A DNA stretch of 64,000 nt from Candidatus Uhrbacteria bacterium GW2011_GWC2_41_11 (GTDB taxonomy: Bacteria > Patescibacteriota > Patescibacteriia > UBA9934 > GWF2-40-263), in assembly GCA_000996355.1 (NCBI GenBank), contig LCAH01000001.1, positions 18,482-82,481 of the forward strand, read 5' to 3'. The notes beneath the pieces are model-generated. The model ran no database searches. It had not been told where the DNA came from and saw nothing but the letters and a program-made list of their open reading frames with translations. The position numbers and the translations under genes were made by a program. This document shows, piece by piece, positions 1,117-28,052 of this stretch; within the stretch, counting starts at the first letter, position 1; each line of letters begins with the position of its first letter.

Positions 1117-3627
1117 TTGACTGTTATGCCAAAAAATTATTCTTCAAAACAATCAGCCGCTCCAGCAGAACCATTAGAAAATAATGGAGCGGGAAAATTA
1201 GAGCTTCGGGATATTCGTGAAGAAATGTCAGATGCTTATCTTGATTATGCCATGTCTGTCATTGTGGCTCGTGCATTACCAGATGTTCGTGACGGACTGA
1301 AACCTGTTCATCGCCGTATTTTGTATTCGATGTGGCAAACAGGCTTGCGTTCTGGATCTCGTTTTAAAAAATGTGCAACGGTTGTTGGAGATGTTTTGGC
1401 AAAGTATCACCCACATGGAGATATTGCTGTCTATGACTCTCTTGCTCGTTTAGCCCAGGATTTTTCTCTTCGATATCCGTTAGTTCACGGACAAGGAAAC
1501 TTCGGTTCTCTTGATGGCGATCCGCCTGCCGCATATCGTTACACAGAATCAAAACTTCATGCGCTTGCCGAAGAGATGCTTACGGATATCGAACGTGATA
1601 CGGTCGATTTTCGTCCAAACTATGATGGAGCTCATGAGGAGCCAAAAGTTCTTCCAACCAAACTTCCGAATTTGATTGTAAACGGAACCCTTGGCATTGC
1701 CGTTGGAATGGCGACAAATATTCCTCCGCATAATTTGACGGAAGTCTGTGATGCATTGACGTTTTTGTTGGATCAACCAGAAGCGACCATTGATGATTTG
1801 ATGCAATTTGTACAAGGACCGGATTTTCCAACTGGAGGAATTATTTACAATATCAATGACATTCGACAGGTATATGCAACGGGAAGGGGAGGAATTTTAA
1901 CGCGTGCAAAAACCGAGATTGTCGAAGATGCAAAAGGAAACTTTCGTATTTTGGTTCACGAAATTCCCTACCAAGTGAACAAAGCAACTCTTTTGGAAAA
2001 AATTGCTCTATTGGTACGCGAAAAAAAGATTGAAGGTATCAAGGATTTGTGGGATGAATCAACAAGTGCTGGCGTGCGCATTGTGGTTGAATTAAAACGT
2101 GATGCTTTCCCGAAAAAAGTTTTGAATCGATTGTTTCAAGCTACACAACTTCAAGAAACATTTCACGTAAACATGCTGGCACTCATTGATGGAATTCAGC
2201 CCAGAATTTTGAACTTGAAAATGATTTTGGAAGAGTACTTGAAGCATCGAAAAGTGGTGGTTCGCCGTCGTACCCAATTTGATTTGAATCGCGCACGTGA
2301 ACGATCTCATATTTTGGAAGGATTGCGCATTGCGCTTCTTCACATCGATAAAATCATTGCCACGATTAAAAAATCCAAAGATCGTGACGAGGCTCGTACC
2401 GCTCTTATGAAAGGGTTCTCTCTTTCTGAACTTCAAGCGGTTGCCATTCTTGAAATACGCCTCCAACAGCTTGCGAATCTTGAACGGTTGAAGATTGAGC
2501 AGGAATATGAAGAAAAACAAGCTTTGATCAAAGAATTAGAATCTATTCTCAAATCTGAAACAAAGTTAAAAAGTCTTGTAAAGGATGAAATTCAGGATCT
2601 GAAGAAATCGTACGGAGATGAACGTCGGACAAAAGTTGTAAAACAGGGTGTCAAGGAATTTTCTATGGAAGATGTGATTCCAGATCTTCCAGCTATTGTA
2701 ATGATCACGCAGGGTGGATATATCAAACGTCTTTCACCAGACACATTTCGTCAGCAGGAACGTGGAGGAAAAGGAGTTCTTGGTCTTACCACAAAAGAAG
2801 AAGATGAAGTGGAACAACTTTTTTCAACCACAACACATCGTGATCTTTTGTTTTTTACTAGCCGCGGTCGTGTATTCCAGATGAAAGCATATGATATTCC
2901 GGAAACAAGCCGAACAGCAAAGGGAACAGCCCTGGTGAATTTTTTGAATTTGGCTCCGGGAGAATCTGTATCCGCAACCCTTTCTATGGCAGATGTCGAA
3001 GGATTCAAACATCTTCTTATGGTAACAAATAAAGGAACGATTAAGAAAACACCATTTACCGATTTTGAGAATATTCGTCAGAGTGGATTGATTGCGATCA
3101 AATTGAAAGAGGGAGATAATCTTGAATGGGTTCGTCCGACCACAGGAAATGATGATGTGATGTTGGTGACATCCGATGGTCAATCCATCCGTTTCCATGA
3201 AAAAGATGTTCGTCCGATGGGTCGGGTAGCATCAGGTGTGCGTGGAATCCGTTTAAAGGGAAATGATGCGGTTGTTGGTATGGATATTATTTCGCTGGAA
3301 ATGCAAAAGCGAAAAGACCCGCCACAACTCCTCGTTGTTACAGAACACGGATTTGGAAAACGCACCCCCGTTGATGAATACAAAGTTCAGGCTCGTGGAG
3401 GTTCTGGAATTAAAACCGCGAATACTCAAGGAAAAATTGGTAAAATTGTGGCTGGAAGAATGGTAAATGCAGATGACACACGTGATCTTATGGTTATTTC
3501 CATGGCCGGACAGGTTATTCGTACAGCATTATCATCCATTTCTGTTCTTGGACGTGCCACCCAAGGAGTTCGAATCATGCGATTCAAGGAATCAAACGAC
3601 AAAGTTACAAGTGTGGCGATTGTCTAG
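1117..3627 (+). CDS. gyrA: DNA gyrase subunit A
   Basis: 836 aa; canonical GyrA N-terminus '[26 protein letters not shown]' and a C-terminal beta-pinwheel repeat region. Confidence 0.95.
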
Positions 3628-3688
3628 ACAAATTTTTTCCTCTGTCCTAGGATGCCTCCGCTTCGTGGTGAATTTGGTTTTCATCGCG

Positions 3689-4162
3689 ATGTGGTTTCCA
3701 ACAAGGAGAGAAAAATTGAAGACAATCAGGATGTGGAGTTTTTTGATGATGGTTTTCTCCGGTCTGGTCATGGTGTTTACCATCGGATACGCCCAAGCAG
3801 GTTACTGGACTGGACATTCCGGAATCCGTACGGTGGTTCAGGATTCGGATGTTCTACCTGTCTTGCCCGATCCGGTTCAGGAAGCAGCCATCAATTGTGT
3901 CCAGAGATGGACCGAGAAAGTTGGCGATGAGAGTGATATCCTCAATGAATGGGTCTATCAAGATGAGACCTATAGGATCACCATTGAGGAGGTTGGTAAA
4001 AACGCTGCCTTCTGTTTTCTCGAAACCCTCGATGAGGGTGATGTGATTTTTCATGCCATGATTATCCTGAATCAGACAACAAACAAGGCCGGCTGTTATA
4101 CGGCCTACGGATGCGATCTCCAGACCCATTATTGTGGAATATTTATCATCTGTCATCCGTGA
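3689..4162 (+). CDS. hypothetical secreted/membrane-anchored Cys-rich protein (GC-rich insert; start uncertain, 3689 or 3731)
   Basis: Downstream part of ORF 3467..4162. N-terminal hydrophobic segment MWSFLMMVFSGLVMVFTIGYAQA followed by a soluble Cys-containing domain. Local GC is clearly above the flanks. Confidence 0.4.
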   Translation: MWFPTRREKLKTIRMWSFLMMVFSGLVMVFTIGYAQAGYWTGHSGIRTVVQDSDVLPVLPDPVQEAAINCVQRWTEKVGDESDILNEWVYQDETYRITIEEVGKNAAFCFLETLDEGDVIFHAMIILNQTTNKAGCYTAYGCDLQTHYCGIFIICHP

Positions 4163-9283: not shown

Positions 9284-10819
9284 TTATCGTGCGTATTCCA
9301 CCACACGTGTTTCACGAATAAGAGTGATCTTTACTTCGCCTGGATATTGAAGTTCTCCCTCGATTTTGAGGGCAATGTCTTTTGCGAGTTTGTACGCAGT
9401 TAAATCATCAATTTTTTCCGGTTGAACAAAGACACGAACCTCACGACCCGCTTGAATGGCGTAGGCTTTTTCAACACCTTCAAAACTTATAGCTGTTTGT
9501 TCGAGTTCCTTCATGCGTCCCACAAATTGTTCCAAAGATTGTTTGCGTGCTCCTGGTCGTGCTCCACTAATAGCATCCGCAGCCTTTACAAGTGCTCCTT
9601 CGATCGTACGTGGACGATCTTCGTGATGGGCAATGGATTGGTAACAAATTTCTTCCGGGAGTCCAAATTTTTTCAGGATATTGTATCCGATTTCCGGGTG
9701 TGCTCCTTGCATATCATGGTCTACGGCCTTGCCAATATCATGAAAGAGTCCGCCTTTTTTGCACACAAAAACGTCTGCACCCAATTCTTCGCCCATAATG
9801 GCGGAAAGTTGGGCAACTTCAATGGAGTGCTGGAGGACGTTTTGACCGTAGCTTGTGCGATATTTAAGACGACCGAGAATCGAAACAAGTTTTGGATCAA
9901 TGGAAGAAACGGGAATACCCAGTGTATAAAGTGCTTCTTCTCCGCTTTTTTTGATGTCTGTTGCGAGCATTTTTTTTGCGTCGCTGATGGATTCCTCGAT
10001 GCGGGCTGGATGAATGCGACCGTCTTTAATGAGCATTTCAAGGGCTAATTTTGCCACCTGACGACGAATCGGAGAAAATCCGCTGATGGTGATAATCTCT
10101 GGAGTGTCATCTACAATAATTTCTGTGCCAGTGAGAAGCTCGATGGCTTTGATATTGCGTCCCTCTTTTCCAATAATACGTCCTTTCATCTCATCAGATG
10201 GAAGAGTGACTGCTGTTGTGGTTGTTTCAATGGCTTGTGAAGATGCGTAACGCGTGACTGCCAAGGATAAAAGTTTACGTGCCTGACGTTCCAATTCTTC
10301 TTCAGTCATTTGTTCGAGTTTACGAATTCGATTCAGCATGGCTTCCTGATGTGTTTCCTCGACAAGTTTTAAGAGACGTTCTTCAGCTTGCGTCTTGGTA
10401 AGATTGGAAATTTCTTGCAATTTTTCCACGGCCTGTTCTCGCAATTCTAAAACTTTTTTCTTTCCTTCTTCAACATGTTTAACTTTTTCTTCGAGTTTAT
10501 TTTTTTTATCTTCAAGTTCCAGGAGTTTTTGATCAAATAAAACTTCCCGTTTTTCTAGACGTTTTTGAGATTCTTGGAGATCTCGTTGTCGATTTGTCTC
10601 TTCTCGTTTCGCTTCCTCAATAATATTGATGGCTTTTTCTTTTGCTTCAATGAGAAGTTCTTGTTGTTTCGTCTTTGATTCCGCAATGAGTTTTTCTGCT
10701 TTTGTTTCGGCATTTCGCATGGTCTTCTGGGCAAGATAACGGCGCATGATATAGCCAATGCAAGCACCAGCAATGAGTCCGCATCCCAGGATAAAAATGG
10801 TAAATGGAAGGGATAACAT
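9284..10819 (-). CDS. rny: ribonuclease Y
   Basis: N-terminal TM helix, long coiled coil, KH domain 'GRIIGKEGRNIKAIE', HD domain 'HSIEVAQLSAIMGEELGADV..LFHDIGK'. Confidence 0.9.
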   Translation of the reverse strand: MLSLPFTIFILGCGLIAGACIGYIMRRYLAQKTMRNAETKAEKLIAESKTKQQELLIEAKEKAINIIEEAKREETNRQRDLQESQKRLEKREVLFDQKLLELEDKKNKLEEKVKHVEEGKKKVLELREQAVEKLQEISNLTKTQAEERLLKLVEETHQEAMLNRIRKLEQMTEEELERQARKLLSLAVTRYASSQAIETTTTAVTLPSDEMKGRIIGKEGRNIKAIELLTGTEIIVDDTPEIITISGFSPIRRQVAKLALEMLIKDGRIHPARIEESISDAKKMLATDIKKSGEEALYTLGIPVSSIDPKLVSILGRLKYRTSYGQNVLQHSIEVAQLSAIMGEELGADVFVCKKGGLFHDIGKAVDHDMQGAHPEIGYNILKKFGLPEEICYQSIAHHEDRPRTIEGALVKAADAISGARPGARKQSLEQFVGRMKELEQTAISFEGVEKAYAIQAGREVRVFVQPEKIDDLTAYKLAKDIALKIEGELQYPGEVKITLIRETRVVEYAR

Positions 10820-17339: not shown

Positions 17340-18524
17340 ATGTCCTTTGAAATCGAAATTCAAGATACATTTTCTTTGAATGATGTTTTGCATCTTGTTC
17401 GTACGATGTCGCCGGACACTGTATGTAAGACACCTCATGTTGGAAATCATTATCTCAATAATTTAGCCATGGGATTTTTGGGGATTCCTATGCGGCTCGT
17501 GGATACGAATGTGGGAAAAAAGGATGTAAATTTTCATCCCCATTGTTTGATCGTAGATGGTCGGCGTGAAATTATGGGAGATCCGAATCTTCTTATGCCG
17601 CAGAATTGTGTATGCTGCAAACCGAATCAGTTTAGTGAACGTTTTCCTTTAGGAGGTTTGATTCAAGATGGGCACATCTCTTCTCTTCAGGAGGTGTTTC
17701 CAAAAACATCTATTCAAGGGAATCTTGCATTTCTTCGGAAACATGCAGAGGTTTCAGAAATGACCTGTCTTTTGTTTGCAGAGCTATTTCCATTTCTTTG
17801 GAAACGTTCTGTGAATGAGTTTGGTTCAACGTCCGTTGATCTTCCGTTTTTGGGAGCATCTTCTCTTAAACATCTGGGGATTATGGGACTGACGAACCTC
17901 AAAAAAGGATGGATTATCCCGAATCAAATTGGCATCTTTTTGGATGTATTGATTCCGGCATTAAAGGGTGATTTTGTCGTATATCAACTATCTGGTCCAG
18001 ATATGTATCGATATATCTCCGGATATCTTACCGTGTTTCAAGAGATGTATGAGGCTGTTCGAGTGTCTTTGTACTCACAACTTCCGGAAACGGTTCGATT
18101 TGTTTGTATACCTGTTGCGGATATGCGGTTCGTCGTGCAAAAGGAGCGAAGGATGTTTTTGGATGAATTGATCGAGGCAGTCTGTGCATACGAGTTTTTC
18201 GAACAAGAAAAATCTATGGTTTTTGTTCGAGGGTCGTCTGAAGATAAAGAAAAACAGATTGCAACATTTCGTGAAAGAGGTCGTGTACATACAGAACATC
18301 TTTATCGTGCGATAGGTGCATTGCCAGAGATTTTTTATGAGATCTCGGATGGAACCTACTTGTCTCAATACGATCTGCTTTTGAATAAGGAACAAGGAAC
18401 TCCAACAGATGAACTTCTTTATATTCATCCATGGGCATTGGAAACACCTCTTTGTGACGTTTCCCGTATTTACAAACGTCTTCTGAAATTGTATGAGCGG
18501 CAGAATCGTAAACAGCGATCGTAA
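17340..18524 (+). CDS. hypothetical protein (394 aa)
   Basis: Long ORF with an RBS (GGAGGT 8 nt upstream) and its own terminator at ~18533-18566. No recognisable motif. Confidence 0.5.
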   Translation: MSFEIEIQDTFSLNDVLHLVRTMSPDTVCKTPHVGNHYLNNLAMGFLGIPMRLVDTNVGKKDVNFHPHCLIVDGRREIMGDPNLLMPQNCVCCKPNQFSERFPLGGLIQDGHISSLQEVFPKTSIQGNLAFLRKHAEVSEMTCLLFAELFPFLWKRSVNEFGSTSVDLPFLGASSLKHLGIMGLTNLKKGWIIPNQIGIFLDVLIPALKGDFVVYQLSGPDMYRYISGYLTVFQEMYEAVRVSLYSQLPETVRFVCIPVADMRFVVQKERRMFLDELIEAVCAYEFFEQEKSMVFVRGSSEDKEKQIATFRERGRVHTEHLYRAIGALPEIFYEISDGTYLSQYDLLLNKEQGTPTDELLYIHPWALETPLCDVSRIYKRLLKLYERQNRKQRS

Positions 18525-20965: not shown

Positions 20966-21053
20966 GGTGGGGTGGCCGAGCGGTTTAAGGCACCGGTCTT
21001 GAAAACCGGCAGACTGAAAGGTCTCGCGAGTTCGAATCTCGCCCCCACCGCCA
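20966..21053 (+). tRNA. tRNA-Ser (anticodon TGA)
   Basis: Acceptor GGTGGGG/CCCCACC, D arm GCCGAGCGGTTTAAGGC, anticodon stem CCGGT/ACCGG with loop CTTGAAA, long variable arm, T arm GCGAGTTCGAATCTCGC, CCA encoded. Confidence 0.85.
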
Positions 21054-21107: not shown

Positions 21108-22154
21108 ATGATTTACAAGAAACCGGCAAAATTAAAAAGTGGTGACAAAGTAGCGATTGTGTCGCCGTCTTGGGGTGGCCCAAGTGTTTTCCCGCACGTA
21201 TACGAAAACGGTATCAAGTTCTTGAAGGAATGGGGTCTTGAAATCGTTGAATATCCAACTGCTCGCATGGATGCGGGTTTCCTACGAGAAAATCCTCAAG
21301 TCAGAGCTAAAGACATAAACGACGCATTTACTAATCCTGAAATCAAAGCAATCTTTGCTTCAATAGGAGGAGATGATTCGGTTCGGATTCTTCCTTTTGT
21401 AGATAAGAAAATAATCGCTGAAAATCCTAAAGTCTTAATGGGCTATTCGGATACTTCAACTCTCCACGTATTCGCAAATCTCCAAGGTCTTGTAACTTTC
21501 TACGGCCCTTCAATTATGGCCGGCTTCTCACAAATGGAATCTTTGCCGGAAAGTTTCAAATCTCACGTGCGAGAGGTACTCTTTGATCCAAAAGATAGTT
21601 ACGAATACAAAGCATATGGAACGTATTGCGATGGCTACTTAGATTGGTCAAACAAAGAGAATTTAGGAAAAACGAACCTGATGAAATCGGATGACGGCTG
21701 GCATTGGCTCCAAGGAAATTCCGTCGTTCAAGGAGAACTATTTGGCGGATGTATTGAAGTCTTGGAAATGATGAAGGCGACTGACTTCTGGCCATTAAAA
21801 GAGTTTTGGAAAGACAAGATACTTTTCTTAGAAACTTCGGAAGAGAAACCCTCTATCCATTACGTCGATCATGTTCTACGAAATTATGGAATGCTCGGCG
21901 TGTTCAATCAAATAAGTGGCTTTATCTTCTCTCGTGCACGAGACTATTCTGACGAGGAGAAAAAGGAGTTGGAAGAAAAGATTGTTACTATCGTTTCGAA
22001 AGAATTTAATAGGCCAGATTTGCCAGTTATCACCAACTTCGATGTGGGACACACTGATCCTCAGTTGGTCTTACCACTGGGGGTTAAGGCAGAAATTGAT
22101 TGTCAGTCTAAGAAAATTAGATTAGTAGAACCCTGGTTATCTTTAGACCTGTGA
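21108..22154 (+). CDS. LD-carboxypeptidase (peptidase S66; LdcA/MccF-like)
   Basis: 'GDKVAIVSPSWGGP', 'LMGYSDTSTLH' (nucleophilic Ser) and C-terminal His/Glu region typical of S66. Confidence 0.75.
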   Translation: MIYKKPAKLKSGDKVAIVSPSWGGPSVFPHVYENGIKFLKEWGLEIVEYPTARMDAGFLRENPQVRAKDINDAFTNPEIKAIFASIGGDDSVRILPFVDKKIIAENPKVLMGYSDTSTLHVFANLQGLVTFYGPSIMAGFSQMESLPESFKSHVREVLFDPKDSYEYKAYGTYCDGYLDWSNKENLGKTNLMKSDDGWHWLQGNSVVQGELFGGCIEVLEMMKATDFWPLKEFWKDKILFLETSEEKPSIHYVDHVLRNYGMLGVFNQISGFIFSRARDYSDEEKKELEEKIVTIVSKEFNRPDLPVITNFDVGHTDPQLVLPLGVKAEIDCQSKKIRLVEPWLSLDL

Positions 22155-23110
22155 ATTCGATGACCTTACAATGTGATCGATGTGGAGAGAAACATTCTTA
22201 TAAAATTTCACAAAAAGATCTCGATTCTGGTTTAACTCTTAATTTCGCTTGTTTGAATATAAAAAGACTCCCAAGGGTTAGTAGTTTCCGCATTGATTTT
22301 ACAAAAAACGCGCCGTCCACGAAGAGGGAGGAGGAGGAAAGAGTCTCAACCCTTTATGGGCCGAATGATGTCGTGGCTAAAACTAACCGTAAAAACGAGA
22401 TCAATCAACCGAAGTTATGGTTGATTTACGATTTTGATCAGTATTTTGAAGAGATAATCAATTCATACATAATTGGCTCTTTTTATCCTGTTGCCACCTC
22501 CTGTACGGCTTTGGCAGAGAGATTGGTAAATCTTTTCATTATCAAAATGAGAGATTTACACACTCAGTCCCTTTTGGATGTTCAATTAAAAAAGTATGTT
22601 CACTCTCGTAATCAAAACTGGCAGTCGTTTGAGTTGAATATGAAAGTTCTACAAGTATGGAATTTACTCAATACTAATCAAAAAGGTTGGTTTAAGGACT
22701 TGCTTGATATTCGCAACAGGGCTGTCCACTTCCAATCAGCTTTTGATCCTCAGCCTGATTCATTGAAGGCAGTGCAAATCTTGCACAAGATTATCGATAG
22801 TTATTTCAGTCCATTTGAAAGAAAAGATGTCCTAAGGGTATTCGAGATACCAGGTGAAATATGGGTAAAAGAAGAAAAATTAAACGATCCTTTTGTTAAG
22901 GCCTTCATATTGCCCTGCTGCAGAGACTTTGCTTCTCAAGGAACGCTTAACAATAAAAATATTTACCACGAAAATGACGCTGTGATCGGACCATTTTCTG
23001 AAGCTGACTTCATTGAGCAGCGGAAAAATTACCAGGCCAATCTAACCTACGAACCTATATATCAGAAAGGAACTATCGAAGGTAAGGAGTTTACTTTTAG
23101 GATTATTTGA
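22151..23110 (+). CDS. Abi_2 (AbiD/AbiF)-like HEPN-motif protein, candidate abortive-infection protein
   Basis: 319 aa; 'WFKDLLDIRNRAVHFQ' matches the Rx4-6H HEPN motif in the context typical of the Abi_2 family (L..iRN..aHh). N-terminal CxxC pair. Family assignment is by motif only. Confidence 0.45.
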   Translation: MNSMTLQCDRCGEKHSYKISQKDLDSGLTLNFACLNIKRLPRVSSFRIDFTKNAPSTKREEEERVSTLYGPNDVVAKTNRKNEINQPKLWLIYDFDQYFEEIINSYIIGSFYPVATSCTALAERLVNLFIIKMRDLHTQSLLDVQLKKYVHSRNQNWQSFELNMKVLQVWNLLNTNQKGWFKDLLDIRNRAVHFQSAFDPQPDSLKAVQILHKIIDSYFSPFERKDVLRVFEIPGEIWVKEEKLNDPFVKAFILPCCRDFASQGTLNNKNIYHENDAVIGPFSEADFIEQRKNYQANLTYEPIYQKGTIEGKEFTFRII

Positions 23111-23355: not shown

Positions 23356-23820
23356 ATGACCAAAGAATTTAAGTATAAATTTGATGCTGGTCCAGTTGCT
23401 TCACAGGAAGATCTCTTGAGCGAATGGGCGATAGGTAATTGCCGCAGAGCAGTGCAGCTCTATACTTTTAGAAAGAAAAACCTCTTTCTAAAACTAGAGC
23501 AAGTTTTGTGTCCCGCGGCATATAATGAAACAGGTGTTTTTGTTATCAATAAAGATCAAGAGTTTTCTTTTGACTCTCTTGTAGACGGCGATATTATTTA
23601 CGCAGAGAAGATCAGAAATAAAAACGGTAAAGAAGTCGACAAAAGCGAAAATACTTTCAATTCAGCGGATGAGTATATTATTTCACTTCACACCGCTTTA
23701 TATACGGGAGAGAAAGACCGCGAAATATGGCATGCAACCGCAGTAGAAGGATCGAGTTGTTTCTGGCCACTTGAGAAATTTCTTCATTTTTATAAACCGA
23801 TTGTGGCAAAACGAGTATAA
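23356..23820 (+). CDS. hypothetical protein, possible NlpC/P60-like Cys-His-His hydrolase
   Basis: 154 aa; order Cys (LCPAAY) .. 'GDIIY' .. 'SLHTALYTGE' .. 'IWHAT' resembles the NlpC/P60 catalytic layout. Weak. Confidence 0.3.
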   Translation: MTKEFKYKFDAGPVASQEDLLSEWAIGNCRRAVQLYTFRKKNLFLKLEQVLCPAAYNETGVFVINKDQEFSFDSLVDGDIIYAEKIRNKNGKEVDKSENTFNSADEYIISLHTALYTGEKDREIWHATAVEGSSCFWPLEKFLHFYKPIVAKRV

Positions 23821-24112: not shown

Positions 24113-24745
24113 ATGGCGCTTCGATCCACGAGATTCGATGATTATTTTTTAAAAAATATAAATCCAGTTATTCGATTTTTGATTATTTCAGACACAGTTC
24201 TTCGAGGAGCCTCAGGATTACTTGGACCAATTTTTGCGTTTTTTATTCAGGGATTCGTAGAAGGAGGAGATGAAGCAGTTGCGGGCGTAGCGGCTGCTAT
24301 CTATCTTTTTACGAAAAGTATTTTTCAAATTCCTATCGCACATCTTATTGATCGAATCCGTGGAGAAAAAGACGATTTTTGGTTCATGTTTATCTTTACT
24401 CTTCTTATTGCGTTTATCCCATTATTTTATCTTGTTATCCATACACCTTTACAACTTTATGTGATTCAGTTTATTCTTGGAATTTTTACTGCGTTTACCT
24501 TTCCGACCTATATGGCAATTTTTACTCGCCACATAGATAAGACAAAAGAGGGGGTCGAATGGGGGATGTATTTTACTCTTACCGATTTGACAGGTGCCGC
24601 TTTTGCAGCCGTTGGAGGATATATTGCCATGAGTTCTGGTTTTCCAACCCTTATTATCGCCGTTGTTTTTCTTTCTGTCATCGGATCTCTTCTTCTTTTT
24701 CCCATTAAATCTTTTCTTCAGAAAAAGAATGATCTTCGTTTATAA
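24113..24745 (+). CDS. 6-TM membrane protein resembling one half of an MFS transporter (possible fragment)
   Basis: 210 aa with six predicted hydrophobic helices. Only half the length of a 12-TM MFS. Confidence 0.35.
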   Translation: MALRSTRFDDYFLKNINPVIRFLIISDTVLRGASGLLGPIFAFFIQGFVEGGDEAVAGVAAAIYLFTKSIFQIPIAHLIDRIRGEKDDFWFMFIFTLLIAFIPLFYLVIHTPLQLYVIQFILGIFTAFTFPTYMAIFTRHIDKTKEGVEWGMYFTLTDLTGAAFAAVGGYIAMSSGFPTLIIAVVFLSVIGSLLLFPIKSFLQKKNDLRL

Positions 24746-24811: not shown

Positions 24812-24969
24812 TTGACATTTTAAATTATTGTGTTAGTCTTTTTTGTTGCTCATTTACAATAATGGTTTGTCAACAGCAAATGGTCAGAAAACGAGTTTTT
24901 TGTCGATTTACTGTTGACAAACCTTGCAAAGAACAAGGTTCCTGAAAGTCTATCCTTTCCTGTCGACAG
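24812..24969 (+). promoter_or_regulatory. control region: TTGACA -35-like box, 13-bp perfect inverted repeat GGTTTGTCAACAG/CTGTTGACAAACC, and palindrome CTGTCGACAG
   Basis: TTGACA at 24812-24817; inverted-repeat arms at 24864-24876 and 24911-24923, each containing TTGACA on one strand; palindrome at 24960-24969, about 85 nt before the first ATG of the downstream operon. Confidence 0.45.
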
Positions 24970-25052
24970 TTGTGAAGAGAAAGGAAAAATCTCGAAAAGA
25001 ACGGGATTTCAGGCCGAAAAGGTGTGGTGTAAAGAACACTACACACAAACAA

Positions 25053-26297
25053 ATGGAGGAGAAGATGAAAAAAGGAAAAGAGAATATTGCGATCAGCCAA
25101 CGGTTTTGCCGCTGGGCGGTTCGCGAAGATGGTCTCAAATTTGCTGGGAGTATCATCGCTATACTCATCATTGCTGGGTTCATCCTTGGCATTGATGTCG
25201 TAATCGCGATGTTCATGACGGACAAAGATCTTGTCCGGTTGATCGCCTGGTTCGGGATAATAGTTTTCGGATTTTTTGTCTTCACGTTTAGTCTGAGAAA
25301 CAGGTTTCATGAGGATGAACATCTGTGGGGCAGGGCTCTACAGCATCTTGGCGAAAAATTAGCTTATCAATTTTTCGTCAGACCGCACGAAGTCAGATTC
25401 GTCCATTTGTTCGGACTCAAGGAAACCAGGCGCCAGGCCGTGGAGGAAATTCGGAAATCCGATTATGGTTATTTTCTGGATTGGACGCGCAAGCATCTTG
25501 TCGTTCGTTCAATCAATGAGTTCCTTCTTTACCACGCGTTCATCCAATCTTCTATTCAAGAAGAAGGAATACGTCCGTCACCAGAGTTGCTTCGACTCAA
25601 GCGGCGGTTCTGGGCTGCTTGGAATATGGCTTCGGCTATGGGTATTCCGCTTCTCAAGGTGAAGGATTATGTCTTTTGTCGGAAAGCGGTTGATGTTCTT
25701 CCAACCTTTCAACCGTTTGATCGGTCGGACGAGATGTTGCGTTATTTCGATCGATTCTGCATACACGCGAATTGGGCCGTGCGAGATGAGAACACGGAAG
25801 TTGCACGAGCATGTCGGGATTTCCTCGGAACAGCCGGAGCGGATCTGGTCGCATACGTGGCGGACTCAGGGATTGATCTTCGAAAAACGAAGGTCGGTCA
25901 GGATGAAAGATCTGTTCCTTTTATCGAACGGATCGAAGCCGCGTTCGCATGTCGAGAAGCGGGAATGGATGAGTTGCATAAAATGTGTACGACGGCTCAA
26001 TGGAAGGCTGTCCTTGCCATGGAGCCACATGTTTTTCTCCCGATTCGGGAACAAGTCCTGTTTCATTCTGAAAGGGAAAAAGAAGGATATTTTCGACGGA
26101 TGGTGGACATCATGCATCCGACAGTTTTCTTCGATGTTTCACAAGCCGAACAAGGTCAGACGCCATGGCGGTATTCGGCTGGTGGACCGTATTGGTCTGA
26201 GATCCATAACGGTCGATGGATTGATGGAAAAGTTCGTCAGTCAGTCCTGGACGATGTTTTCGGCATTGGGTGGAATAAGGTCGGGAGGGTGTCATGA
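25053..26297 (+). CDS. hypothetical 2-TM membrane protein with large cytoplasmic domain (GC-rich)
   Basis: ATG at 25053 preceded by GGAGGAG. The track's TTG start at 24924 lies inside the inverted repeat and is unlikely. TM hairpin (FAGSIIAILIIAGFILGIDVVIAMF / LIAWFGIIVFGFFVFTFSL) then ~330 aa with no recognisable motif. Confidence 0.55.
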   Translation: MEEKMKKGKENIAISQRFCRWAVREDGLKFAGSIIAILIIAGFILGIDVVIAMFMTDKDLVRLIAWFGIIVFGFFVFTFSLRNRFHEDEHLWGRALQHLGEKLAYQFFVRPHEVRFVHLFGLKETRRQAVEEIRKSDYGYFLDWTRKHLVVRSINEFLLYHAFIQSSIQEEGIRPSPELLRLKRRFWAAWNMASAMGIPLLKVKDYVFCRKAVDVLPTFQPFDRSDEMLRYFDRFCIHANWAVRDENTEVARACRDFLGTAGADLVAYVADSGIDLRKTKVGQDERSVPFIERIEAAFACREAGMDELHKMCTTAQWKAVLAMEPHVFLPIREQVLFHSEREKEGYFRRMVDIMHPTVFFDVSQAEQGQTPWRYSAGGPYWSEIHNGRWIDGKVRQSVLDDVFGIGWNKVGRVS

Positions 26298-27379
26298 AGA
26301 AATTAATTGATGTCGTTACTGTTTTTCTTTCTCTTGCATCAGCTATTACTACCTGGGAAGGTTTGCGATATGCAAACCGCCTTGCGGATACGGAACTTCA
26401 GCGGTTCTGGATTCCGACAGCAGTGGCAATCTGTTTCTTCCTTTGTGCCTCTGCTTTCTGGCTGTCTTTGTTTCAGTGGTATCCGAAGGCAGACAAGGAA
26501 AAAAAATCCAAACTCCAGCTTATTGTTGTTGGGGGATGTGCGGTTATCTTTTTCGGTTCGACTTTGTGGTCGGTCATTGGCATCGGAGGCATCTCGGCCA
26601 TGACCTATCATATGAGCGGCACGATCAACGACGCAGATGCTATTCAAGGTTCTTTGTCCAGGCGCGTTGAACGAGAATGGAGTGTGGCAACTTCTCTGCA
26701 ATATCTCGAGCAGCAATTTCAAACCTTGTCTAATCTCGAGGAAAAGCAAGGAGCTTTCAGTGGATATGCCAACACGGGAGACGTGACTATTCAGTTAGAA
26801 TCTCTCTCAAAGGCGCTTGGGAATCTTCGCACGGTTCTTCAGAAAAATGCGGAAGAAAGTCGGACGGATCTGTCCGAATCCAAGGATCGCGTTGAAAAAC
26901 TTCGGCAGATTGTTGACGAGCCGGAAACACCCATTTCCAAAAGGATGAGCGATTTCAGCAAGGCACTGACCTCGTTGAACGAAGTATTTCAGCGAGTTCA
27001 GAGTCGACAAATGGCCAGTTTTGTCCGTGAGATCTCCGGAGACCTCGATACATTTGCTGCGGTTCAGGCACCTACGCAAAAAAATGATGTCGGAGAGGCG
27101 CAGCGTGCGGCCTTGGATCGGCTCAAGGCAACTGTGGTCGCGGCAAAGCAAACATTAAAGAAAATCTCGGAAGGGGCTGAAAGCTCTGAAGAGATAAAAC
27201 TCAAGAACTTGACTACAATTTCGCCCGGCATGGCAGTCATCAAATATGCCGGGGCGATTGTGGGAGAGATCGCAGCAGCTATTGCGCTGGATTTTTTTCC
27301 GGTCATCTTCTTTATCATTCTTGCCCTGACAGCGGATATTCGCAAAAAGGAACAGGAAGAGGAAGAAGGACTCGAATAA
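26294..27379 (+). CDS. hypothetical membrane protein: 3 N-terminal TM, ~200 aa coiled coil, C-terminal TM (GC-rich)
   Basis: Start overlaps the upstream stop (ATGA), suggesting translational coupling. Coiled-coil-like heptad region in the middle. Ends with a hydrophobic helix and an acidic tail. Confidence 0.55.
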   Translation: MKKLIDVVTVFLSLASAITTWEGLRYANRLADTELQRFWIPTAVAICFFLCASAFWLSLFQWYPKADKEKKSKLQLIVVGGCAVIFFGSTLWSVIGIGGISAMTYHMSGTINDADAIQGSLSRRVEREWSVATSLQYLEQQFQTLSNLEEKQGAFSGYANTGDVTIQLESLSKALGNLRTVLQKNAEESRTDLSESKDRVEKLRQIVDEPETPISKRMSDFSKALTSLNEVFQRVQSRQMASFVREISGDLDTFAAVQAPTQKNDVGEAQRAALDRLKATVVAAKQTLKKISEGAESSEEIKLKNLTTISPGMAVIKYAGAIVGEIAAAIALDFFPVIFFIILALTADIRKKEQEEEEGLE

Positions 27380-27975: not shown

Positions 27976-28052
27976 GCGCCCGTAGCTCAGTTGGATAGAG
28001 CATCAGCTTGCGGAGCTGAGGGTCGCACGTTCAAGTCGTGCCGGGCGCACCA
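27976..28052 (+). tRNA. tRNA-Arg (anticodon GCG as read; unusual)
   Basis: Acceptor GCGCCCG/CGGGCGC, D arm GCTCAGTTGGATAGAGC, anticodon stem TCAGC/GCTGA with loop TTGCGGA, T arm GCACGTTCAAGTCGTGC, CCA encoded, followed by a terminator hairpin. Confidence 0.75.

Follow-up and report, generated by a model that had tools for sequence, protein, structure and literature searches.

A predicted HEPN-superfamily ribonuclease with a putative zinc-binding module, encoded by a stand-alone gene in Candidatus Uhrbacteria

The region analysed, hereafter called the window, is a stretch of 64,000 nucleotides of contig LCAH01000001.1 from Candidatus Uhrbacteria bacterium GW2011_GWC2_41_11 (GenBank assembly GCA_000996355.1). 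It contains a complete open reading frame (ORF) that encodes a protein of 319 amino acids followed by a stop codon, and the encoded protein is 100% identical to UU48_C0001G0054, a hypothetical protein from Candidatus Uhrbacteria GW2011_GWF2_41_16. The positions of this gene, of the parts of its product, and of the neighbouring features are listed in Table 1. The original prediction had named an MccF-like peptidase as the adjoining gene, and this is correct: the gene upstream encodes a member of the S66 LD-carboxypeptidase family, which includes MccF, and its product matched the Pfam models Peptidase_S66 (4.8e-32) and S66C (1.2e-29).

Table 1. Features of the locus, numbered from the first nucleotide of the window.
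Feature	Position	Strand	Basis
tRNA-Ser(TGA), context only	20966-21053	+	tRNA call, Rfam
S66 LD-carboxypeptidase (MccF-type family), context, not partner	21108-22154	+	Pfam
ORF of the HEPN protein with putative zinc module	22151..23110	+	ORF call, record identity, dN/dS
Putative N-terminal CCHC metal-binding beta module (aa 1-36)	22151..22258	+	Conserved signature, model strands
Candidate metal ligands C8, C11, H15, C34	22172-22174, 22181-22183, 22193-22195, 22250-22252	+	Signature
Conserved strand and linker helices (aa 40-92), between zinc module and HEPN core	22268..22426	+	Model, alignments
Predicted HEPN four-helix core (aa 96-219)	22436..22807	+	AF2 model
E123-R124-L-V-N127 in helix-2, conserved acidic residue complementing the HEPN active site	22517..22531	+	108-sequence alignment
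Catalytic-type Rx4H motif R188-N189-R190-A191-V192-H193	22712..22729	+	Alignment, hhalign register
C-terminal alpha/beta extension (aa 221-297)	22811..23041	+	Alignment coverage, model
Terminal beta-hairpin (aa 300-319)	23048..23107	+	Alignment coverage, model
Downstream 154-aa ORF	23356..23820	+	No match in Pfam, PADLOC, NCBIfam or PHROGs

The GTG start codon of the gene overlaps the stop codon of the S66 gene (GTGA). In the NCBI record the start is placed at an ATG three codons downstream, giving a product of 316 amino acids, while the GTG is the position at which the N-termini of the homologs align. The gene appears to be translationally coupled to the upstream cell-wall peptidase gene. Comparison with its 80%-identical relative gave a dN of 0.12 versus a dS of about 2 (dN/dS about 0.06), and a profile search recovered 328 cluster representatives at E <= 1e-3; therefore, the gene is real and under strong purifying selection.

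The gene had also been predicted to lie in a tRNA-adjacent accessory region, which holds in part. A tRNA-Ser(TGA) gene is indeed located nearby, and the GC content falls to 34–39% over 22.1–24.8 kb versus about 41% in the flanks, with a patch of 47–50% following, but neither a recombinase gene nor a tRNA-Ser-derived repeat of 14 nt or more elsewhere was found in the window. The genes surrounding the HEPN gene are of the housekeeping type (MurI, Sua5/YrdC, and the M19 and S66 peptidases), and no recognised defence gene was found near it in the window.

A full-length AF2 model of the 319-aa protein was obtained with a pLDDT of 87.3 and a pTM of 0.80. The N-terminal module is modelled with strands at residues 2–7, 14–19, and 30–32, and contains the signature C-x2-C-x3-H-x17-24-C, which each of the 23 long-form relatives examined has retained. 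The N-terminal CxxC noted originally is therefore present once (C8-x2-C11), not twice, as a part of this CCHC signature together with H15 and C34. About 85% of the extended family in the alignment lack the module; the short-form members begin at the linker region, in which D49, G70, and K77 are near-invariant. The predicted core consists of helix-1 (96–108), helix-2 (111–133), a helical insert (144–169), helix-3 (175–191), and helix-4 (200–219). The following extension is common to the whole extended family (coverage of 0.8–0.97 in the broad alignment, A2), with G235, P247, P255, and F287 among its conserved residues. Since this region is modelled with good confidence within the full-length protein and only with a pLDDT of 64 when taken alone, it probably packs on the HEPN core rather than forming an autonomous domain. 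The terminal hairpin (AF2 strands 305–309 and 312–318; coverage of 0.12–0.21 in A2) is mostly limited to the long, zinc-module form. Foldseek searches with the model against PDB and the viral BFVD database returned no significant matches, and sequence searches of PDB, whether with the protein alone or with either profile, were without meaningful result; the sole match, at E of about 1, was to a KH-like stretch of Rrp40 and was taken as chance.

The predicted Rx4-6H motif lies in the segment LLDIRNRAVHFQ (residues 184–195, nucleotides 22700–22735), with R188 encoded at 22712–22714 and H193 at 22727–22729. Taken on its own, the bare Rx4-6H pattern is no better than chance, being present in 62% of shuffles of the HEPN protein and in 30 of 48 long ORFs in the window; 5% of the shuffles had the stricter form R[NDH]x3H. 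What makes the motif meaningful is the invariance of R188 and H193 among the homologs and their place in the predicted fold. Together with E123, they are the only invariant residues in an alignment of 108 homologs with 16–62% identity, and the spacer between R and H is exactly four residues long in 104 of these sequences. The position directly after R, occupied by N189 in our protein, has N in 54 homologs and H in 30 (one or the other in 84 of 108), and in helix-2 the residues R124 and N127 are 94% and 99% conserved, respectively.

According to the published definition, HEPN domains form a four-helix up-down bundle built from two alpha-hairpins, carry a polar residue (N, D, or H) directly after the conserved R along with a further conserved acidic residue in helix-2, usually as part of Ex3[KR], and act as metal-independent RNases by means of a composite active site formed in the dimer (Anantharaman et al. 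2013, PMC3710099). The predicted fold of the 319-aa protein contains such a four-helix bundle, in which R188 and N189 occupy the last turn of helix-3, H193 lies in the following loop, and N189 is the polar residue. The acidic residue in helix-2 is E123, but it stands in a local E-R-x-x-N motif instead of Ex3[KR]. The insert between helices 2 and 3 in the model also agrees with the definition. The sub-threshold matches of family members were to HEPN-clan models only and covered residues of about 146–216, while the 319-aa protein itself matched neither DUF4145 nor Swt1-like HEPN at E <= 1. The modelled fold, the placement of the motif within it, the invariance of E, R, and H, and the sub-threshold HEPN-clan matches support the assignment of the protein to the HEPN superfamily as a predicted RNase, and in this respect the original prediction holds.

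Judged by sequence similarity and clustered at 50% identity, the family comprises at least 328 clusters, mostly of metagenomic origin and unannotated, and it falls outside Pfam, NCBIfam, PADLOC, and PHROGs. The long form with the N-terminal CCHC module is mainly associated with Patescibacteria; the short-form relatives include proteins from Bradyrhizobium and Bacillus. A search of 185,579 species genomes with the profile of the close alignment yielded only three loci; only two weak matches to the family were detected on plasmids, and no family member was found in phage genomes. Truncated copies exist. No paper describing this family was found in the literature on HEPN defence proteins in CPR.

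The neighbourhoods of the homologs make an abortive-infection or defence role plausible, the evidence being about 11 loci counted by hand and not a statistical enrichment. One locus contained a serine recombinase and an OLD-like AAA/TOPRIM gene, another an integrase, ART-PolyVal, and Fic, and a third a Type III restriction–modification (R-M) system with an AAA_15/21 ATPase; a reverse transcriptase, a second serine recombinase, Shedu SduA_C, another AAA_15/21 gene, and an NgoFVII R-M system were present at further loci, and homologs on plasmids had IS66 and a recombinase nearby. Considering these data together, we propose that the gene encodes a stand-alone HEPN-superfamily endoribonuclease acting as a latent effector of defence or conflict and belonging to a family outside the four databases named above, a reading to which we assign a probability of roughly 0.55. 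The patchy distribution, the truncated copies, the GC content below that of the flanks, and the precedent of the phage-defence RNase RAZR were counted in favour of a defence effector, while the lack of any recognised defence gene, recombinase, or att-like repeat in the surroundings of the gene in the window, its apparent coupling to a cell-wall peptidase gene, and the near-absence from plasmids and absence from phage genomes were counted against it.

Alternatively, the protein could have no role in defence and simply reside in variable regions, as an RNA-processing enzyme of housekeeping or regulatory function or as a HEPN protein that binds a ligand or RNA without catalysis. Other HEPN domains do act in rRNA and mRNA processing or serve as non-catalytic modules, as in MtlR and the substrate-binding domains of nucleotidyltransferases (PMC3710099), and the housekeeping surroundings of the gene, with no recognised defence gene nearby, would fit this view. 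However, non-catalytic HEPN families typically lose the catalytic residues (PMC3710099), which are strictly invariant here; the distribution is extremely patchy, with three of 185,579 species genomes; truncated copies are present in the family; and the context differs in every genome, with R-M, Shedu, OLD, and recombinase genes found repeatedly. We therefore regard a non-defence function as unlikely.

The comparison of homolog loci also bears on whether the gene acts alone. In two all-against-all comparisons of about 12 loci, no two independent loci had a neighbour in common at E <= 1e-3, and by this measure the HEPN gene is a stand-alone gene with no conserved partner. Many HEPN toxins are paired, HepT-MNT among others, and the protein could instead be the toxin or a subunit of a multi-gene system in which the partner is the 154-aa ORF, the S66 peptidase, or a small unannotated antitoxin. 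The overlap of its start with the S66 stop codon, suggestive of co-transcription, the location of the 154-aa ORF downstream on the same strand, and a same-strand ORF without assigned function that abuts the gene at two homolog loci (L011 and L021) are in line with such an arrangement. Against it, besides the lack of a common neighbour, the S66 peptidase gene adjoins no homolog, the 154-aa ORF has no family match, and none of 13 other loci has a neighbour similar to it at E <= 1e-3; as no homolog is accompanied by a conserved copy, a role of this ORF as cognate partner or antitoxin is unlikely. The HepT/HEPN-MNT toxins themselves (e.g., 5yep and 7ae2) are domains of about 130 amino acids always paired with an MNT antitoxin gene, whereas our protein has three extra modules, and neither the window nor any of 10 homolog loci has an adjacent nucleotidyltransferase (MNT) gene. 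Altogether, a partner-dependent system appears improbable.

The closest architectural analogue is RAZR (PD-T7-4), the ring-activated zinc-finger RNase, a single-gene abortive-infection RNase consisting of a Cys4 zinc ribbon and a DUF4145 HEPN domain (PMC13017515), but the 319-aa protein is not a member of that family. The likeness is one of analogy only: an N-terminal putative zinc module, a linker, and a HEPN domain, with no conserved partner gene. If the protein were a distant RAZR homolog, it would be expected to become active when it oligomerises around a ring-shaped phage protein, for example a portal, and hhalign does place its Rx4H motif in register with N150 and H154 of RAZR. The tests of membership by PADLOC, Pfam, BLASTP, and hhalign, run with positive controls, were negative. 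The PADLOC PD-T7-4 model matched none of the 109 proteins scanned (the protein and 108 family members), versus 1.7e-99 for a RAZR homolog used as a control (L014:3346-4002(-)); hhalign probabilities against the RAZR alignment (A4) were 1.2% for A2 and 3.2% for A1; BLASTP gave an E value of 1.1; and a profile search of PDB sequences returned no matches. The two also differ in the metal ligands (Cys4 in RAZR, CCHC here), in the motif (R146-x7-H154 versus R-x4-H), and in an extra C-terminal extension of about 100 amino acids in our protein. Moreover, most members of its family have no zinc module at all, and therefore the module was a later addition to this family. A distant homology to RAZR is very improbable.

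The most frequent weak matches of the family were to DUF4145 (PF13643) and Swt1-like HEPN (PF18731), over helix-3, the Rx4H motif, and helix-4, and zinc-ribbon fusions are listed for both groups in the HEPN survey (PMC3710099). Nevertheless, every score was below the gathering threshold: the best member reached 17.4 bits for DUF4145, with a cut-off of 23.1, and 14.3 bits for Swt1-like HEPN, with a threshold of 27.5, while all RAZR relatives carry PF13643.

The original prediction had assigned the protein to the Abi_2 family (AbiD, AbiD1, and AbiF; PF07751), which would make it a divergent AbiF-like HEPN RNase toxin checked by a cis-encoded ncRNA; this is the least tenable of the explanations considered, and we reject it, since PF07751 matched none of 131 family members (23 close and 108 distant) nor the protein itself at E <= 0.1–1, and the alignment A2 gave a probability of only 2.0% (E of 0.024) in hhalign against a genuine AbiF alignment (A5). 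As the positive control, PF07751 is present in AbiF of phage phiC2 and in each of the 120 relatives listed for it. The resemblance lies in membership of the HEPN superfamily, in the form of a single gene for about 300 amino acids (about 290–320), often in mobile or defence settings, in weak matches of 8 of the 23 close members to Swt1-like HEPN, which is grouped with Abi2 in the HEPN classification, and in the R-N-x3-H motif (RNRAVH here versus RNQCAH in AbiF). The register in hhalign was convincing only at this motif, with R188 and H193 falling on R202 and H207, the catalytic residues of AbiF (PMC12373285); R-N-x3-H is common to many HEPN families and is not diagnostic of Abi_2. On the other hand, Abi_2 proteins have neither the CCHC module nor the C-terminal extension, and there is no upstream intergenic space for an ncRNA, since in the window and at homolog loci L003 and L005 the upstream ORF reaches up to or into the start of the gene. 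Rfam at E <= 0.1 detected two tRNAs and two far-below-threshold matches over the same tRNA loci, and nothing else, although a new kind of ncRNA at another place is conceivable. The cloning primers of the Abi_2-type PD-T4-5 locus gave no match or chance matches only. The original prediction had named as its refutation the joint absence of a significant family profile match and of a HEPN four-helix core; the PF07751 match is missing, but the core is present in the model.

Returning to the stand-alone endoribonuclease, its mode of action can be envisaged from established HEPN enzymes. Two HEPN cores would dimerise, so that R188, N189, and H193, aided by E123, form a composite metal-independent site, which would cut single-stranded RNA and leave 2',3'-cyclic phosphate ends. 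The genomic context suggests that the protein may be held as a latent toxin or defence effector in variable, mobilome-linked islands and that, once switched on, for example by infection, it would degrade cellular or invader RNA and stop growth in the manner of abortive infection. By analogy with RAZR, one might speculate that trigger recognition and the ensuing relief of autoinhibition are the task of the variable zinc module or of the C-terminal extension. A still more far-reaching scenario is that within an undescribed family of stand-alone HEPN RNases a mainly patescibacterial branch independently gained a CCHC module at the position of the Cys4 module of RAZR, resulting in a convergent immune protein with a zinc-finger sensor and a HEPN effector, where the module would set trigger specificity and the C-terminal extension would be autoinhibitory or oligomerising; we consider this possible but doubtful.

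If the proposed function holds, the family would be a new one among the HEPN RNase effectors of prokaryotic immunity and, being invisible to Pfam, NCBIfam, PADLOC, and PHROGs, one missed by current defence-system censuses. It would also provide a second, independent single-protein design of zinc module and HEPN domain besides RAZR, in which this design has been shown to work, and could help to test whether the combination serves as a general means of phage-protein sensing. For the annotation, the label 'HEPN-superfamily protein, predicted RNase' can replace 'hypothetical protein', while an Abi_2 label is unsuitable. For the CPR/Patescibacteria, with their tiny genomes and poorly charted defence repertoire, these genes would be candidates for a role in innate immunity.

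The ORF at 22151-23110 of the plus strand encodes a 319-aa protein, in which the R188/H193 pair of an Rx4H motif lies within LLDIRNRAVHFQ (residues 184-195) and a C8-x2-C11 pair is found at the N-terminus. In these respects, as well as in the proximity of tRNA-Ser and S66 peptidase genes (MccF belongs to the S66 family), the original prediction was confirmed. The GTG start codon shares bases with the TGA stop of the S66 gene (GTGA, window 22151-22154), implying translational coupling. The public annotation begins at an ATG at 22160, three codons after this GTG; the N-termini of homologs match the GTG start rather than the annotated one. Over 316 aa the protein shows 100% identity to UU48_C0001G0054, a hypothetical protein of Candidatus Uhrbacteria GW2011_GWF2_41_16, which places the window in a Patescibacteria (CPR) genome. 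Purifying selection on the gene is strong (dN 0.12, dS ~2 against an 80%-identical relative).

A bare Rx4-6H motif alone has little meaning; it is present in 62% of shuffles of the protein, in 30 of the 48 long ORFs of the window, and a second time in the protein itself, as RCGEKH (residues 10-15) inside the cysteine module. The motif at R188/H193 carries weight because of its conservation and structural position. A word-indexed search revealed 25 relatives, none annotated, and an exhaustive profile search extended the family to 328 cluster representatives at E <= 1e-3 (202 of these at <= 1e-10), the usual relative being 260-300 aa long and spanning only profile positions ~42-300; the only name given to relatives in the sources, where any, is 'hypothetical protein'. 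Across an alignment of 108 members, whose identity to the window protein is 16-62%, E123, R188 and H193 are the only invariant residues, and R124, N127, G70, K77, W170 and P247 are nearly so. Exactly four residues separate R from H in 104 of these sequences, and N or H follows the R in 84. Decayed copies also occur: one in Sungiibacteriota (L009 5983-6744, 85% identical) ends after 'GEIWVKEEKL' and continues as unrelated sequence, and one in an Acidobacteriota MAG (L010 5980-6615) is a C-terminal fragment only, 73% identical to the P0024 subtype.

Structure prediction by AF2 from the family alignment gave a confident model (pLDDT 87.3, pTM 0.80). [quoted passage not shown] A Foldseek search with this model yielded nothing significant (best E 2.5), but the top marginal matches, MtlR, a HEPN toxin and Csm6', were again of HEPN type, which points to a divergent HEPN domain. 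The C-terminal region modelled in isolation was poor (pLDDT 64); rather than forming an autonomous domain, it probably packs on the HEPN core. Fold, motif placement and the three invariant residues bear out the original assignment to HEPN, and we consider it highly probable that the protein has a HEPN fold and an intact active site of RNase type.

Features of the 319-aa protein, its gene and the loci of its homologs (L numbers)
Feature	Position	Strand	Basis or context
Beta module	residues 2-49		AF2 model
Linker helices	residues 58-84		AF2 model
Helix-1	residues 96-108		AF2 model
Helix-2, bearing E123	residues 111-133		AF2 model
Helical insert	residues 144-169		AF2 model
Helix-3, R188-N189 in last turn	residues 175-191		AF2 model
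H193, in loop	residue 193		AF2 model
Helix-4	residues 200-219		AF2 model
Alpha/beta extension	residues 228-318		AF2 model
R188	nt 22712-22714	+	Rx4H motif
H193	nt 22727-22729	+	Rx4H motif
tRNA-Ser(TGA)	20966-21053		upstream of HEPN gene
S66 LD-carboxypeptidase	21108-22154		upstream of HEPN gene; Pfam 4.8e-32 and 1.2e-29
Serine recombinase, large	L001 4032-5741
Serine recombinase, large	L021 7702-9039
Serine recombinase	L024 5565-6464
Serine recombinase, 197 aa	L012 474-1067
Tyrosine integrases	L003, L011
IS66	L011
OLD-like AAA/TOPRIM nuclease	L001
Type III R-M, AAA_15/21	L005
Reverse transcriptase	L007
Shedu SduA_C, then EMARD_N-domain protein	L022 180-5864
AAA_15/21 ATPase	L023
NgoFVII-type R-M	L024
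23S_rRNA_IVP/bAvd-like four-helix protein and LDcluster4 protein	L021 2584-3631

The protein had no significant match in Pfam, NCBIfam, PADLOC or PHROGs. Individual scans of 23 close and 108 distant members gave sub-threshold matches only, consistently on HEPN-clan models (DUF4145, HEPN_Swt1, HepT-like, Cthe_2314 and Apea; RTasHEPN, CARF_HEPN and Csx1/Csm6 in PADLOC), which map to residues ~146-216 and are all under the curated cut-offs.

The N-terminal 39 residues are found in only ~15% of members. The signature C-x2-C-x3-H-x17-24-C was strict in all 23 sequences examined of this long form, very divergent ones included, which makes the module a genuine candidate for a CCHC zinc site. In its architecture the protein parallels RAZR/PD-T7-4, but no family-level homology to it is detectable; RAZR is a 'Zn finger-HEPN' single-gene abortive-infection RNase, activated when it assembles around rings of phage portal or Gp77 (PMC13017515). 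A RAZR homolog from a prophage-like contig, located by the published cloning primer, matched the PADLOC PD-T7-4 model at 1.7e-99, and PF13643 is present in all its relatives; compared with the studied family, it gave 1.2-3.2% in hhalign and a BLASTP E of 1.1, and membership was rejected. The original placement in Abi_2 proved wrong: PF07751 was absent from the scans of the 23 close and 108 distant members, while it is carried by all 120 listed relatives of the reference, AbiF of C. difficile phage phiC2 (sharing 99.9% identity with AbiF(Cd), which has been studied by experiment; PMC12373285), and hhalign between the two alignments gave a probability of 2.0%, with only the RNxxxH motif in register (R188/H193 on R202/H207). 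With RAZR against AbiF calibrating at 0.2%, sequence comparison indicates three separate HEPN families, the studied one belonging to neither named family.

RAZR/PD-T7-4 itself lies at 3343-4002 (-) of an enterobacterial prophage-like contig (L014), downstream of an integrase. The same slot of another such contig (L013), downstream of a near-identical integrase, holds an unrelated 202-aa protein (9622-10230, -) that has an Rx4H motif of its own, 'RDAIAH', but lacks a PADLOC match; the slot may be a defence hotspot and this protein an uncharacterised HEPN-like cargo.

No gene was common to the neighbourhoods of ~12 independent loci, even at E <= 1e-3, and thus no partner, antitoxin or MNT is conserved. 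Neither the S66 peptidase nor the downstream 154-aa ORF of the window lies beside any homolog. The recurring content is mobilome and defence genes. The four serine recombinases, with pairwise similarities of 25-33%, are located within a few kb of the HEPN gene on otherwise unrelated contigs, which suggests carriage on small serine-recombinase-mobilised elements. The bAvd-like/LDcluster4 and Shedu/EMARD_N genes have the look of additional defence-island genes on CPR-type contigs. Family members are very patchily distributed: among 185,579 species genomes, a search with the long-form alignment retrieved only three loci, and Patescibacteria-type MAGs account for two. Plasmids gave two weak matches to the family, and phage genomes none.

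Near the HEPN gene in the window there is no recombinase, att-like repeat or recognised defence gene. The GC content of the gene and its downstream neighbours is 34-39% versus ~41% in the flanks. After this low-GC stretch comes a patch of 47-50% GC (25100-27200; ~41% for the genome), extending towards the next tRNA and stopping just short of this tRNA-Arg (27976-28052); it looks like separately acquired DNA. Its two long ORFs, 24924-26297 (457 aa) and 26294-27379 (361 aa), have no match in Pfam or PADLOC, and neither has a 394-aa ORF at 17340-18524, flanked by thioredoxin-reductase-like and M19 dipeptidase genes. The MFS transporter ORF at 24113-24745 is only 210 aa long, matches the 347-position MFS_1 profile at positions 12-180 alone, and is probably a truncated or split gene; a full-length, unrelated MFS gene adjoins the homolog at L003.

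The best-supported reading is a stand-alone HEPN protein with predicted RNase activity. By established HEPN enzymology (PMC3710099; HepT, Csm6 and RAZR structures), a dimer would unite R188, N189 and H193, with E123, in a composite metal-independent active site, which would cut ssRNA and leave 2',3'-cyclic phosphate ends. Judging by its patchy occurrence, the missing partner and the defence and mobilome genes nearby, in a small hand-curated sample of loci, the protein most likely serves as the latent toxin in a defence or conflict system of a single gene, and the homolog context renders the originally proposed abortive-infection role plausible. We put the probability of the full statement, a HEPN RNase-type protein with a defence or toxin role, at roughly 0.55. 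In RAZR, binding of the phage trigger and specificity both reside in the zinc-finger domain; by analogy, one could speculate that the CCHC module or the C-terminal extension acts as a sensing or autoinhibitory element.

The protein is an unclassified family-level variant among the well-known HEPN RNase effectors. As defence islands are already familiar as a source of new HEPN families, the finding is useful rather than startling; it would gain significance if the zinc module were a convergent trigger sensor in CPR bacteria.
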